Shown here: positions 35,053 through 40,361 of the stretch, piece after piece
Numbering within the stretch: position 1 is the stretch's first letter
How the letters are laid out: each line of letters starts with the position of its first letter
NCBI GenBank assembly: GCA_949295085.1
Contig: CASFJS010000003.1
Coordinates: forward strand, 2,695 to 66,694
Length of the DNA: 64,000 nt
Direction of reading: 5' to 3'
Source: an uncultured Pseudomonadota bacterium
GTDB taxonomy: Bacteria > Pseudomonadota > Alphaproteobacteria > RF32 > CAG-239
Notes under the pieces: generated by a model
Seen by the model: the letters and a program-made list of their open reading frames with translations, nothing else
What the model was told of the DNA's origin: nothing
Databases searched by the model: none
Position numbers and translations under genes: made by a program

Positions 35053-37386
35053 TTATTTTTTCGGACTAAACGGATTTTTATCCTCTGACGATTTGGTCTT
35101 AAAAGCATCTTCTTTCATCCACCAATCGCTTTCGGCGTCTTGTACTTTTTGTTTTTCCTTTTCGACACGGGCCGCCGATACCGCTTCTCGTGCAAGCGAT
35201 TTGGCCGTTTTTTGTTTGGTACCTATTTCCGATCTGATCTCCTCAAAAACCACATCCATATACTGATCCAGCTCAACCAGATCTTCCACACCCAAATCTT
35301 TTTGCTCAAACACCTCGGCCAACTTCGGCGTTTCCATGGCAAACGATGTTTTACCCGCAATTTTTCCGGCCGGTAGACCATACACGGCGTCCAAAACAGC
35401 CAACCGGCGAAAACGCTCATCCTGCGCAAAAAAGATATTATCCGCCAAAATCGGCCGATTATAGTATCCTTCGGCCAAAACAACCTGATAATCCCGAGTA
35501 TTGATCTTTACGCGCCGATGAGCATAGAAATCCTGCGCCAACCGATGAAAATAATATGCATTGGCAAAATATTTGCCTTTACGTATCCTCTCTTTCATTC
35601 GGGGTATCTGTACCGACCGGGTGGCAAAAGTAGCCAATTTATCCAACTGCCGACTCAATTTTCGGTTATCCGGCGCTTTGATGATTTTATAAGTTGTATT
35701 GGTCACCAGACATTCAAGTTCCTCTTTACTGTACGTATTCTCAACCAGACTCAAACTGTTACACAACAGCAATGCCGACATCTTTCTGGCCCGGCCGACC
35801 GTCAACAACGCCGTCAGATTTTTAAGACGCAAATTATGCCCGACATCGTCTAACACCAACATAAACGGTAACGGCCCCTGCTTTTCTTTCAAATACAAAC
35901 CGCGATACATAATTTCATCCAAAAACATCTGGTTCAAAATCTTAGAGGCATGCGTATTGGCCAAAGAGTAAATGGTTACGGGCCGCCAACAATTTTTTTG
36001 AGTATCATAAAACCCGCGTATTTTTTCCATCTCAAAATCATTACCGTTGGTTCTTTCCCGCAGAGCCTGATTGGTAAAAATACAAAAAGGCTTTAACGCA
36101 CAGGCAAACACAATCTGCCGTTGTTTGGCCGACATTTGCAAAAATTGCTTTATCCCGTCCGTCACCAAATCTCCGTAACTAAAAAAAACGGCTTCCTGCA
36201 AAAGAGACGCACCCCACGCACGCCAGTCTCTTTTTCTGGAATCCTGCGCTGTCATATAACAATCAATCAGCCAATCGGTCATGCCGGCAAAACAAACTTC
36301 TCGCCCGATCCACTGTTCGGGGAGCCCTGCCCAACTGCCGACGGGCAAATAATTTTTTTCGGTCATCCGGCCTTGTTTCAAATTTTCTATGGCCTCTGCC
36401 GCATAAGCCGGCGGCATCTGAATATAATAACTGAGCAAAATATCTTTTTCTTCCGCCGTCAAATGTTTACCCGCAATCAATTTTCCCAAAAAATAATCAT
36501 TGGCTCTGGCCTGTGTATCTTTTGCCAGCCAATAAGCCGTCAACGAAACAATAAACGCCTGAACGGCCAAATTCCAATAATCATCTTTTTCCACATCATC
36601 CGCATCAACCAAATATCCGGCTATCCGCCTCAGATAAGCCTTTTGTTCCTCTTTATCTTTTGGCAGATTATCGTGTGACAAAGGATTCCAGCGCGGATAA
36701 AAAATTCCTTTATCCGGCTCATCCAACAAATCCCAATTATAATAAAAGACCTCACCCAAAGTCGCGCGATACCCGGCTGTATATTTCGGCAAAAGCCCGG
36801 TCATATCCACGGCGACGATACACGCGTTATCCGACCGCAATACCGACGGGATCGCAACACTTGACGTTTTTCCCGTTCCCATCTCACCGATACACAAAAC
36901 CGAATCAGACGGCCGTATGCTCAAAATCAAGTCCTTAAACCGTCCGAGCACCATAAACATTTCTTGGCCAAGCCCCATATGCTCAAGATCTTTCAAACCG
37001 GCAAAACGATGATTGAGAACATACCACAAGCGAAACGAATAATGACTTCCTAAAAGAATAAAAACCAACGTTATTATCAGACCGGCCGGCCCGATTAACG
37101 GCAACAACAAAACCGGCTGCATATTCATGGATTTAATATTTTCAAGCAAAAGCCGCCACCATATTCCGTATATTTCAAAGACAGACCACGGCCGCCAAAA
37201 AAATTTTTCCCAAGGGCAATAAAAACCGGAGACATTTCCGAATAATCTTCCGGACAACTCCACCAGACCGAAACAAACTCCGGACAATCCCCAAAAAACC
37301 AAATATATCATAACAAAAACCGCGACGACATTAACCAATGCTCTGACGCGGCTTTTTTCTTGTTGAATATTCGGGACATCTTTCAT
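35053..37386 (-). CDS. Type IV coupling protein-like ATPase (VirD4/TraG/DotL-like), orphan
   Basis: 777 aa with 3-4 N-terminal TM helices and Walker A GEMGTGKTSS. A ~370-aa insertion comparable to the T4CP all-alpha domain follows, then Walker B PFMLVLDDVG, then LLLCNSLSLVENTYSKEE..TNTTYKI (the T4CP Q-s-x-x-Q-l-x-YG region in degenerate form), then a charged C-terminal tail. No other T4SS genes are in the window. Confidence 0.6.
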   Translation of the reverse strand: MKDVPNIQQEKSRVRALVNVVAVFVMIYLVFWGLSGVCFGLVELSGRLFGNVSGFYCPWEKFFWRPWSVFEIYGIWWRLLLENIKSMNMQPVLLLPLIGPAGLIITLVFILLGSHYSFRLWYVLNHRFAGLKDLEHMGLGQEMFMVLGRFKDLILSIRPSDSVLCIGEMGTGKTSSVAIPSVLRSDNACIVAVDMTGLLPKYTAGYRATLGEVFYYNWDLLDEPDKGIFYPRWNPLSHDNLPKDKEEQKAYLRRIAGYLVDADDVEKDDYWNLAVQAFIVSLTAYWLAKDTQARANDYFLGKLIAGKHLTAEEKDILLSYYIQMPPAYAAEAIENLKQGRMTEKNYLPVGSWAGLPEQWIGREVCFAGMTDWLIDCYMTAQDSRKRDWRAWGASLLQEAVFFSYGDLVTDGIKQFLQMSAKQRQIVFACALKPFCIFTNQALRERTNGNDFEMEKIRGFYDTQKNCWRPVTIYSLANTHASKILNQMFLDEIMYRGLYLKEKQGPLPFMLVLDDVGHNLRLKNLTALLTVGRARKMSALLLCNSLSLVENTYSKEELECLVTNTTYKIIKAPDNRKLSRQLDKLATFATRSVQIPRMKERIRKGKYFANAYYFHRLAQDFYAHRRVKINTRDYQVVLAEGYYNRPILADNIFFAQDERFRRLAVLDAVYGLPAGKIAGKTSFAMETPKLAEVFEQKDLGVEDLVELDQYMDVVFEEIRSEIGTKQKTAKSLAREAVSAARVEKEKQKVQDAESDWWMKEDAFKTKSSEDKNPFSPKK

Positions 37387-37391
37387 CTATA

Positions 37392-38583: not shown

Positions 38584-38588
38584 ATACT

Positions 38589-40361
38589 TTATCGCAAGAT
38601 ACAATCAAATCCGGCCTCAATAATCTGCTCACACAGCGGCTGCAATTTATCCGCTTCCGGGCGCAACATAAGCCGATTATACCTGACCCCGTTGACAACG
38701 GCCTGCTCAATATAAATATCATACGCCGAAAGTGCGTCCACATGATCCCGCAATTTTTTCTGATCCGCAATGGCATTGTCCATATCTCTGTAAGACCCCA
38801 GCTGCATAACCGTATATTGACCCGCCGGCTGCTTACGGATACGCGAAACCGCTGCCGCTTTGAGCTTTGAATCCTGCATCGGCTTTTTAGCTGTTCTCTT
38901 ATCTGGTCCGTCAATCAATTCCTCCAGCCAGTTATCCTTATGTGCCCATGCGTTGCCACCGTCATCCCAGCGCGGTTCGACCTTGGCCGCCGACAACATA
39001 TTAACCATATCCCGGTTAAAGGCTTTTTTCAACACATCTTCAATATCGGCTATACGCCCTTTCAAAATGATTTTATCAAACGGCGACAATCCGGCCATAT
39101 AATACAAATTGCGCAAGGCCGCGGCTCTTTCGGCCAAGATTTTGACTTCTTCCTGCTCTGCCGCCACCAAATCCACCTGCCTTCTGAGCAGGTCGGCCTT
39201 TTCATAATCGGCCGCATTGTCCTTTTTCTTCATCTCTCTGATAATTTTTTTAAGCTCGGCAATTCGATACCGGTTGGCATCATAATCAAAAGAAGCCTTT
39301 TCAACCAACCGATAGGCCAGCTCAACCTGCGTCATCACCAGCGCTGCCAGCTCATCAAAAGCTTTTTGCTTCAAATATTCTTTACCGGGACTTTCTTGAT
39401 ATGCTTCCACGGCATCAAAAAGATTAAAAGTAACTCTCCGCGCCTTGTTAAAAAGCTCGTTTTCATAGCGGCTGTCCTCAATTTCCAACCCGTTAATATC
39501 AAGTCTTGCAACCGGCGGATAATCGACATAAGCCTGCCGTCTGGCCTTGGCGGCATTAAACCCGCCCAACTGTTCTTTAGCCAAAGAAAATTCCCGCCGG
39601 CTGGCCACCGCCGTATCCTGAAAGATATCCGGCGTATAACGCTTATCAAAATCTTCCAGCTCATAAAAACGTTTGCCCTCGGCCTTAATATCACCACCGG
39701 TTGTTTTAATCAAACGTCGATACTCCTTTTGCGCCGACAACAATTGTTTTTTGATTTCGCCCAGCCGGTTAAGTTCAACCTCAAGCTCTTTACGATAATT
39801 GATCTCCGGTTCGGTCAACCCCTCGCCCGTATCGGCTTTGTTATTCAATCTTTGCAATATTTTCCCCTGCTGATTTTGCATCCGGTCAATCTGTCGGACA
39901 GCCTTGGCCGCAAAAATTTCCTCGCGCTGCATTTTAATGGCCGCCAGACTCAAATTCTGAGCCGATTTGGCATACAACATATTTTCAATATACTGCCGGT
40001 TATCCGTTAAAACGCTCATGGCATAAATATCGGCAAAATCCATGGCTCTTGCCGCATTATAAAGCTTGTCGCTCTCATGCCCGGCAAAAAACAGATTCTC
40101 CGCAACCTGCCGGGGATTCTGTTGCTGTCCGTCATAAATCTTCTTAAACATATTTTGCGCCGAAGCATCCGCATGATATTTAGCGGCTCGGGCCATTGCC
40201 GTATAAACGGTCACCTTGCCGGAAATCGATTCGGGAGCCCCGGAAAAGACCAGATCATTTGTCTGCAAAACATTTCCCAACGATTTTTTTTCGGTAGCGC
40301 AGGCCGCCAAAAAGCCAATACTCCCCAATACTACCAATCCGTAAACCAGCCGTCGTATCAT
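38589..40361 (-). CDS. Lipoprotein with TolC/outer-membrane-factor-like helical body fused to a C-terminal SPOR domain
   Basis: Lipobox signal MIRRLVYGLVVLGSIGFLAAC. About 430 aa of paired long-helix repeats follow, with OMF-like repeat ends (QKEYRRLIKTTGGD; AALRNLYYMAGLSP). The last ~75 aa match the SPOR pattern (YTVMQLGSYRDMDNAIADQKKL...VNGVRYNRLMLRPEADKLQPLCEQIIEAGFDCIL). The start is the ATG at 40361, after GAGG. The OMF assignment is an inference. Confidence 0.55.
   Translation of the reverse strand: MIRRLVYGLVVLGSIGFLAACATEKKSLGNVLQTNDLVFSGAPESISGKVTVYTAMARAAKYHADASAQNMFKKIYDGQQQNPRQVAENLFFAGHESDKLYNAARAMDFADIYAMSVLTDNRQYIENMLYAKSAQNLSLAAIKMQREEIFAAKAVRQIDRMQNQQGKILQRLNNKADTGEGLTEPEINYRKELEVELNRLGEIKKQLLSAQKEYRRLIKTTGGDIKAEGKRFYELEDFDKRYTPDIFQDTAVASRREFSLAKEQLGGFNAAKARRQAYVDYPPVARLDINGLEIEDSRYENELFNKARRVTFNLFDAVEAYQESPGKEYLKQKAFDELAALVMTQVELAYRLVEKASFDYDANRYRIAELKKIIREMKKKDNAADYEKADLLRRQVDLVAAEQEEVKILAERAAALRNLYYMAGLSPFDKIILKGRIADIEDVLKKAFNRDMVNMLSAAKVEPRWDDGGNAWAHKDNWLEELIDGPDKRTAKKPMQDSKLKAAAVSRIRKQPAGQYTVMQLGSYRDMDNAIADQKKLRDHVDALSAYDIYIEQAVVNGVRYNRLMLRPEADKLQPLCEQIIEAGFDCILR

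Follow-up and report, generated by a model that had tools for sequence, protein, structure and literature searches.

What does a type IV coupling protein (T4CP), a member of a family defined by its service to type IV secretion and conjugation channels, do when its gene lies among housekeeping genes with no such channel nearby? The question is raised by three adjacent minus-strand genes in a 64,000-nt stretch of contig CASFJS010000003.1 from an uncultured alphaproteobacterium of the lineage RF32 (hereafter the window, whose numbering is used throughout). In their 5' to 3' order, these genes encode (i) a lipoprotein derived from the TolC-family outer-membrane factors (OMFs) with a C-terminal SPOR domain (38589–40361; 590 aa from the ATG at 40361 and 100% identical to P0121, the mechanically called open reading frame (ORF) starting at a GTG at 40367); (ii) a pentapeptide-repeat protein (PRP; 37392–38516; 374 aa from the ATG at 38516, the mechanical ORF beginning at a TTG at 38555); and (iii) a divergent homologue of the VirD4-type coupling proteins, hereafter the ATPase (35053–37386; 777 aa), which was recognized by Pfam, by an AlphaFold2 (AF2) model, and by Foldseek. 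The trio is 5.3 kb in size, with 72 nt between the lipoprotein stop (38589) and the PRP ATG (38516) and 5 nt between the PRP stop (37392) and the ATPase start (37386), which confirmed the original prediction of three co-oriented ORFs with these two gaps. Our answer, to which we give a little less than an even chance, is that the locus encodes an ancient membrane module of Alphaproteobacteria, passed on vertically, that functions in the absence of a canonical type IV secretion system (T4SS). Its core is an obligate pair formed by an inner-membrane VirD4-type homologue and the cytoplasmic PRP encoded directly upstream of it.

The ATPase is a T4CP homologue, although a very divergent one. It matched three Pfam T4CP models, namely T4SS-DNA_transf (PF02534; 55.9 bits, cut-off 20.1), TraG-D_C (28.7 bits, cut-off 22), and TrwB_AAD_bind (25.2 bits, cut-off 20.5), whereas its scores lay far below the NCBIfam VirD4/TraG equivalog thresholds (34.4 versus 728, 32.4 versus 674, and 14.3 versus 681 bits). 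The AF2 model (mean predicted local distance difference test (pLDDT) score 80.2) has the T4CP fold, that is, an N-terminal transmembrane anchor followed by a nucleotide-binding domain into which an all-α domain is inserted. Its best Foldseek matches were Cagβ (8dol; E = 1.6e-14, target TM-score (TMt) 0.64), TrwB (1e-8, TMt 0.64–0.68), and DotL (6sz9); HerA, TdpA, and DndH were the next-best folds and ranked below all T4CPs. A profile of 41 family sequences searched against PDB sequences returned Cagβ as its sole match (E = 0.066). No Pfam FtsK_SpoIIIE match was found for the ATPase. The T4CP identity that had been proposed for this protein was thus borne out, and none of the outcomes listed with that proposal as refuting it was encountered.

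The N-terminal membrane domain (residues 17–113; 37048–37338) contains two transmembrane helices around an aromatic-rich periplasmic loop of ~47 residues. The model places these helices at residues 13–49 and 91–113, and the hydrophobic stretches and positive-inside charges were read from the sequence. Within the loop, Pro66, Tyr73, and Trp76 are invariant or nearly so. The Walker A motif GEMGTGKTS (residues 167–175; 36862–36888) is kept as GxxGxGK[TS] in 76 of the 80 RF32 orthologues, and the Walker B motif MLVLDD (residues 509–514; 35845–35862) lies ~335 aa downstream. A long stretch between the two motifs had been noted before as an insertion of ~370 aa; the stretch is present, but it is ~335 aa and corresponds in the model to the ordinary all-α domain of T4CPs, somewhat enlarged.

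The catalytic site differs from that of canonical T4CPs. In the Walker B motif, an Asp replaces the catalytic Glu: all 81 RF32 sequences read hhhhDD and none reads DE, and Asn or Asp takes the place of the sensor Gln. Of the catalytic set comprising Walker A, hhhhDE, and the sensor Gln, the RF32 ATPases therefore keep Walker A alone, while some more distant relatives outside RF32 retain both the DE and the Gln. By analogy with the FtsK/HerA-type catalytic mechanism, the RF32 ATPase likely binds ATP, whereas fast hydrolysis is doubtful because of the Walker B DD and the loss of the sensor Gln. The inner-membrane hexameric motor envisaged by the original prediction is consequently upheld for its membrane anchor and T4CP fold, and doubtful as a hexameric motor.

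At the other end of the ATPase, the tail carries the motif DWWxxEDAF...NPF (35068–35127), in which Trp755, Trp756, Glu759, Phe762, Asn771, Pro772, and Phe773 are at least 90% conserved. The motif occurs in 72 of the 80 RF32 orthologues and also in the 1000-aa relatives P0259 and P0269. It resembles the WxxF-acidic and NPF types of motif found in eukaryotic endocytic adaptors; the likeness is probably coincidental, as the tail is expected to be cytoplasmic.

The PRP is the most conserved member of the trio (50%–78% identity across RF32). It matched Pfam Pentapeptide (PF00805) with 111 bits in three stretches, is built of A(D/N)LXX repeats in tandem, and lacks a signal peptide. Two repeat blocks are separated by a conserved helical insert and are followed by a conserved cap, ITPQQIAQALGRVP, and then by a long K/E-rich tail, in agreement with the charged-tailed PRP first proposed here. 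The tail contains a DF-x-ELF motif and an Arg-rich end peptide conserved in ~80 orthologues. In the window, this basic C-terminal peptide reads ...LVRDAGRGR (37395–37421), and orthologues end in RGRDSR, SRDRSRD, RGGNER, or DRGR. Outside RF32, the corresponding ends are VSRGR at locus L087 and RQDRGR at locus L175, and the same architecture is common to the PRPs encoded beside related T4CPs at loci L087, L089, L091, L164, L174, and L175. The protein scored far below the thresholds of the Qnr/MfpA DNA mimics (best 38–43 bits versus cut-offs of 240–460), and its matches to the models of the type III secretion system (T3SS) effectors PipB and PipB2 were likewise below their cut-offs.

The lipoprotein begins with a signal peptide and a lipobox (LAAC), whose cysteine is Cys23 in 592-aa numbering (40299–40301); a hydrophobic N-terminus followed by a Cys is kept in essentially all complete orthologues, and the lipoprotein N-acyltransferase gene lnt lies in the window at 23871–25406. 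In its AF2 model (pLDDT 81.8), long helical hairpins occur in duplicate and are connected by a disordered linker to a small α/β domain. All of the top 40 Foldseek matches in the PDB were OMFs (TolC, CusC, OprM, and MtrE), with E-values of 1e-4 to 3e-2 and TM-scores of 0.2–0.48. At the sequence level, the window protein itself had no Pfam OEP match, the family profile found nothing among PDB sequences, and a direct link to Escherichia coli TolC was rejected because the hhalign result was insignificant. The connection was instead made by two homologues from outside RF32. The 723-aa protein of L087 scored 88 bits against Pfam OEP and aligned by hhalign to the RF32 family over its full length, including the SPOR domain (99.8%, E = 5.7e-30), and the OEP-positive 658-aa protein of L175 also aligned over its full length (99.7%, E = 5.7e-26). 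Because of the fold matches together with these OEP-positive homologues, we conclude that the lipoprotein genuinely belongs to the TolC family, although in degenerate form, and ends in a SPOR domain; its OMF-like paired-helix repeats had been noticed previously from the translation.

The degeneracy concerns the barrel. The TolC-like tunnel domain (residues 46–461; 38985–40232) is all-helical, with two internal repeats and reduced segments at the barrel-hairpin positions. The first barrel hairpin is ~31 residues shorter than the canonical hairpins of the L087 and L175 proteins, and the remaining hairpin segments are polar and highly conserved. DSSP analysis of the model showed long helical hairpins and no transmembrane strands, so that the four transmembrane β-strands that each OMF protomer contributes to a 12-stranded barrel are missing from this monomer model. 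At the C-terminus, a disordered linker of ~50 residues precedes the peptidoglycan-binding SPOR domain (residues 516–592; 38592–38822). Its own Pfam SPOR score is below the cut-off (15.8 versus 21 bits). The original assignment of a SPOR domain was borne out by the fold, the modelled domain matching the SPOR domain of RlpA (6i09) with a TM-score of 0.71–0.72 and a root mean square deviation of 2.8, and by PF05036 matches recorded for the orthologues P0207 and P0215. Of 77 orthologues, 69 carry the Q-x-G-x-[YF] motif; Gln522, Gly524, Cys579, and Cys589 are invariant in the domain, and the whole protein has 36 invariant columns. With moderate confidence, we regard the RF32 lipoprotein as a TolC-derived periplasmic tube that is probably lipid-anchored and tethered to peptidoglycan by its SPOR domain, not an outer-membrane channel. 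As for the outer-membrane or peptidoglycan-anchored partner that had been suggested, the probable loss of the canonical barrel makes a lone outer-membrane channel unlikely. A 356-aa ORF lies antisense within the lipoprotein gene (38940–40010, plus strand), and other long antisense ORFs occur across the region; we read them as composition artefacts of a region with strongly negative GC skew, not as genes.

When one genome per species was scanned, relatives turned up in 157 species genomes. All of these come from uncultured Alphaproteobacteria of the gut or rumen, for instance CAG:495, 'Candidatus Scatocola', and metagenome-assembled genomes of the RGIG and RUG series, which we take to belong to the GTDB order RF32. 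The order of a divergently transcribed Gfo/Idh/MocA oxidoreductase gene, lipoprotein, PRP, ATPase, rarA, rluC, and asmA is kept in ~77 of 81 related species, a recurrence that puts the arrangement far beyond chance and strongly supports the adjacency predicted for the three genes in related genomes. The median gap between the PRP stop and the T4CP start is 5 nt (n = 78), and that between the lipoprotein and PRP genes is 69 nt. Across RF32, the identities of the ATPase and the lipoprotein range from ~30% to 75%. The nearest plasmid T4CPs are 22%–24% identical to the ATPase. The GC content of the trio resembles that of its flanks, as the first reading of its composition had held, and no tRNA gene was found in the 64-kb window, also in line with that reading. 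Because the gene order is kept while T4CP identity falls to ~30%, plasmid T4CPs are distant, and the GC content is flank-like, the locus is a constrained, vertically inherited module. A recent island or a decayed conjugative element was rejected on the same grounds: the flank-like GC content, the lack of a tRNA gene, the presence of the same locus in ~77 of 81 species, the distance of the plasmid T4CPs, and the strong conservation. RF32 genomes are reported to be reduced (1.59 Mb) and auxotrophic (PMC8199421), and the retention of a 5.3-kb trio in such genomes implies an important function.

The lipoprotein is the less constant member. Four RF32-type species (loci L045, L061, L076, and L080) carry the PRP–T4CP(–rarA) arrangement with no OMF-SPOR gene within 10 kb, and at L076 (7522–9789) there is no room between the oxidoreductase and PRP genes. 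Beyond RF32, an exhaustive profile search revealed a graded T4CP family, in which the PRP–T4CP pair is found again, between entirely different flanks, in no fewer than five further contexts among Alphaproteobacteria (L087, L089, L091, L164, L174, and L175); several of these lineages also lack the lipoprotein gene at the locus. At L089 the pair lies between obg-rsfS and rpmF-plsX, and at L091 and L174 it follows FTHFS. A Cas9-like protein (RuvC_III and HNH) and Cas1 are encoded at L091 (1–2444), ~8 kb upstream of the pair.

In two of the contexts outside RF32, L087 and L175, a TolC-SPOR gene precedes the pair. The order at L175 is oxidoreductase (minus strand), OMF-SPOR, PRP, T4CP, and further on mipZ. 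L087 has the same frame, except that genes for two HlyD-type adaptors and an M50-HlyD protein separate the OMF-SPOR gene from the PRP gene (4706–8882). The latter is a 715-aa fusion of an M50 intramembrane metalloprotease with a HlyD-like periplasmic part, and it resembles a daptide protease (157 bits, below the cut-off). Judged from sequence, the OMF, the adaptors, and this fusion together resemble an entire apparatus for peptide export. No HlyD or M50 homologue was found in any RF32 locus; such homologues were present only in L087 and L088. Thus, the invariant core of the family is the PRP–T4CP pair, and the lipoprotein is linked to it in three deep lineages (RF32, L087, and L175).

The PRP-linked T4CPs cluster together in a neighbour-joining tree computed without bootstraps. 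Most of the sequences retrieved by a metagenome scan belong to a sister clade, again from the gut, whose T4CPs have no PRP (L092–L171, for example L092 5548–12214). These are chromosomal genes from human and animal gut metagenomes, encoding proteins of 738 aa (Pfam 193 bits) that keep the DE, and they lie in housekeeping surroundings near rpoH and rluD, with neither a PRP nor T4SS genes within 10 kb. They are preceded by four co-oriented genes without a Pfam or NCBIfam match. One of the four encodes a 420-aa protein in which a low-complexity linker joins N-terminal transmembrane helices to a C-terminal domain, a layout that we take to be reminiscent of DotM.

Whether a T4SS channel accompanies these coupling proteins was examined in 176 sequences (175 fetched loci and the window), a set that covers ~10 kb around each family locus. 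No VirB or other T4SS channel gene is among the annotated genes of the 64-kb window, as had been observed from the start, and tblastn found no VirB8–VirB11 homologue in the 175 sequences other than the positive control L173 (2.9 Mb including the window). The control, a virB8-B9-B10-B11-virD4 cluster of Roseiterribacter gracilis whose VirD4 scored only 260 bits against the family profile, was found, which shows that the context method detects channels when they are present.

How the parts would work together can be proposed as follows. The PRP and the ATPase may form a complex, which is suggested by the translational-coupling distance between their genes, the conserved short motifs on both proteins, and the analogy with Cagβ–CagZ. 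The PRP would dock through its basic C-terminal peptide and DF-x-ELF motif, likely onto the enlarged all-α domain of the ATPase or onto its tail, in which the DWW..EDAF..NPF motif is acidic and aromatic. Across the inner membrane, the conserved periplasmic loop of the ATPase would face the lipid-anchored, peptidoglycan-tethered helical tube derived from TolC. In the ancestral form, a T4CP with DE and Gln intact probably powered an export route akin to type I secretion through an OMF that still bore its barrel, and the β-helical PRP would have been the adaptor or cargo of this route. With the catalytic Glu gone and the first barrel hairpin of the OMF shortened, the RF32 form is less likely to be a fast pump than a receptor or scaffold that binds nucleotide, cycles slowly, and connects the cytoplasm with the inner membrane and the cell wall; the SPOR domain might bring it to division septa.

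Several observations weigh against a module independent of a T4SS. The basic, disordered C-terminal peptide of the PRP also resembles a VirB/D4-type translocation signal. The T4SS search reached the ~10-kb flanks and the window, and a scattered chromosomal T4SS of the Rickettsiales rvh type is still compatible with its outcome. A PRP-containing protein of Rickettsia, cREM-4, is a candidate RvhD4-dependent effector (PMC11077975). The flanking housekeeping genes are as syntenic in RF32 as the trio itself, so that the adjacency of the lipoprotein gene is weak evidence of a shared function, and the pair stands without a lipoprotein gene within 10 kb in the four RF32-type species named above and in several other lineages. 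The contacts between PRP and T4CP and those of the lipoprotein are putative, the loss of the catalytic Glu speaks against active pumping, and the barrel-less state of the lipoprotein is read from an AF2 model of the monomer and from a gap in an alignment.

The main alternative, which we consider rather unlikely, is a dispersed receptor. The ATPase would then be a paralogue of VirD4, perhaps a second copy that has degenerated, serving a chromosomal T4SS encoded elsewhere as in the rvh system, with the PRP as a dedicated effector or adaptor recognized by its basic tail and the lipoprotein as an unrelated or accessory protein. The T4CP fold and Pfam membership are as this explanation would have them, the nearest canonical relative found is an alphaproteobacterial VirD4 encoded in a virB8-B11-virD4 cluster, and the basic peptide of the PRP is conserved. 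Duplicates that are catalytically degenerate are a feature of rvh systems. The sub-cut-off matches of the PRP to PipB and PipB2 point the same way, as do the PRP-containing candidate RvhD4 effector of Rickettsia (PMC11077975) and the reduced, auxotrophic RF32 genomes (PMC8199421), which are compatible with host dependence. However, no T4SS gene was found within ~10 kb in the family loci fetched (175 loci including the control) in at least six genomic contexts. The PRP is the most conserved protein of the trio, which is unusual for an effector, and the catalytic Glu of the ATPase is lost. Moreover, the pair is vertically inherited in several alphaproteobacterial lineages, some from environmental samples such as beach sand, and we know of no vertically inherited T4SS in those lineages.

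A further possibility, to which we give a rather low chance, is a T4SS-free envelope translocation system in which a coupling-protein hexamer, in place of an ABC, RND, or MFS transporter, would feed a TolC-family duct, with the PRP as adaptor or cargo. The RF32 form would then be a derived one, poor in hydrolysis and barrel-less, acting as a membrane-to-wall tether. Less probable still is a DNA-handling machine at the division site, in which a T4CP of the FtsK/HerA superfamily would act on DNA at the membrane, the PRP would regulate or plug it as a DNA mimic, and the SPOR lipoprotein would direct the assembly to the septum. SPOR domains bind denuded septal glycan, and PRPs of the Qnr/MfpA type mimic B-DNA. 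The PRP does have weak matches to the Qnr and MfpA models, the folds that follow the T4CPs are HerA, TdpA, and DndH, and DNA-related genes adjoin some loci (rarA in RF32; mipZ, holC, and hda at L087 and L175). Yet the Qnr/MfpA scores are far under their cut-offs, Pfam assigns the ATPase to T4CP families and not to FtsK_SpoIIIE, no DNA-binding or recombinase partner is encoded at the locus, and the neighbours vary by lineage, so that the DNA-related flanks are probably coincidental. The weakest explanation, a highly improbable one, holds that the genes are unrelated neighbours and that the lipoprotein is the OMF of a separate HlyD and M50 peptide-export system whose position is inherited gene order, for which speak the adaptors and the daptide-protease-like M50-HlyD gene that follow the OMF-SPOR gene at L087, the equal synteny of the RF32 flanks, the lineages with a pair and no lipoprotein, and a possible separate promoter before the PRP gene (a consensus match), and against which stand the OMF-SPOR genes of RF32 and L175, which adjoin the pair and have neither an adaptor nor an M50 gene within 10 kb, the constraint on the lipoprotein (36 invariant columns) despite its lost barrel sequence, which implies a function for which such partners need not be close by, and the fact that it concerns the lipoprotein only and leaves the pair unexplained.

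Two other identities were also rejected. An anti-phage defence system was discarded, since PADLOC gave no match for any of the three proteins at E ≤ 0.01. A regulatory RNA at the locus was discarded, since no Rfam family was found anywhere in the window, intergenic regions included. The promoter match mentioned above is sigma-70-like (TTGGCA-17-TATACT, 10 of 12 positions; 38555–38583, minus strand) and falls within the intergenic gap between the lipoprotein and PRP genes; it comes only from a consensus scan and is a putative promoter. On the other side of the lipoprotein gene, and divergent from it, lies the Gfo/Idh/MocA oxidoreductase gene (40475–41482, plus strand), whose product resembles UDP-GlcNAc 3-dehydrogenase (best NCBIfam score 232 bits, below the cut-off of 450). 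A gene of this family adjoins the OMF-SPOR gene in RF32, at L087 (63% identity), and at L175; this adjacency could reflect a functional link to envelope sugar chemistry or an old synteny, and the gene is a conserved neighbour whose membership in the module is no more than a candidate one.

The large annotated ORFs of the window are all housekeeping genes, including mreBCD/pbp2/rodA, ddl, miaA, metK, miaB, phoH, ybeY, and lnt, together with a ccrM-like methylase gene, ppx, flagellar rod genes, lepA, and nusG; a few ORFs had no match in the Pfam search. The CcrM-like N6/N4 DNA methyltransferase with a RAMA domain is encoded at 50986–52083 (minus strand), between RNase HII and two Ppx/GppA genes. 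Two Peptidase_U32 genes lie at 9751–11148 (plus strand) and 56070–58343 (minus strand), one of them encoding 755 aa with DUF3656. Near lepA, at ~45400–46300, there is a small flagellar cluster, seen in locus L085 (15747–17378), with an FlhB-like Bac_export_2 fragment, a rod protein (Flg_bbr_C), and FliE; as far as gene content goes, it suggests that this gut alphaproteobacterium with a reduced genome is motile.

In the literature, we found no description of a PRP–T4CP pair or of an OMF-SPOR fusion, and no paper that treats an orphan T4CP in Alphaproteobacteria or that connects RF32 with type IV secretion; pentapeptide repeats and VirD4 came up together only in the contexts of DotG in Legionella and cREM-4 in Rickettsia. 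The carriers of the trio are abundant uncultured gut and rumen Alphaproteobacteria. Vertical inheritance among housekeeping genes, with no secretion channel nearby, suggests that the trio is an undescribed envelope machine, and its components can be compared with those of several known systems.

The rvh system of the Rickettsiales resembles the locus in having chromosomal genes of T4SS families among housekeeping genes, in reduced alphaproteobacterial genomes, with a PRP-bearing protein linked to the coupling protein. Unlike this trio, near which no channel genes were seen, RvhD4 sits with rvhB8–B11, and cREM-4, which is ~950 aa long and has a single small block of repeats, is not orthologous to the 374-aa PRP. 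Type I secretion shares a TolC-family component encoded beside an ATPase and a repeat β-helix protein with an unstructured C-terminal tail, and L087 adds HlyD-type adaptors to this likeness; by contrast, the ATPase here is a T4CP and not an ABC transporter, RF32 has no adaptor, and export would be putative. The lipoprotein is like TolC, OprM, and CusC in its duplicated long helical hairpins and, as in OprM and CusC, its N-terminal lipobox. It differs from them in (i) having no OEP match of its own; (ii) missing ~31 residues of the first hairpin; (iii) having no predicted transmembrane strands; (iv) carrying an added C-terminal SPOR domain, which to our knowledge has not been described for OMFs; and (v) lacking an adjacent adaptor or ABC, RND, or MFS inner-membrane transporter at RF32 loci. 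A TolC-SPOR fusion, apparently stripped of its barrel in RF32, is unusual and bears on the evolution of outer-membrane ducts and on cell-wall attachment.

The pair itself recalls Cagβ–CagZ and DotL–DotM/IcmSW, in which a T4CP also has a small partner; here the partner gene lies directly upstream, and by analogy its product is probably a T4CP-binding regulator or substrate adaptor. The known pairs are located inside T4SS loci, whereas the partner here is a PRP β-helix and the interaction is putative; PRPs, whose roles are mostly unknown, would thereby gain a concrete partner. Finally, the ATPase shares with VirD4, TrwB, and Cagβ (PF02534, PF10412, and PF12696) the two-helix anchor, the RecA-like domain with its all-α insert, and Walker A, and its best structural matches are Cagβ (8dol) and TrwB (1e9s). 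Unlike these proteins, it has a DD Walker B, a lost sensor Gln, an enlarged all-α domain, and a family-specific DWW..EDAF..NPF tail, and its gene, vertically inherited at a housekeeping locus, does not lie beside a T4SS channel or a relaxase gene. A clade with a long vertical inheritance, a constant PRP partner, and no channel genes observed next to it would widen the role of this ATPase family.

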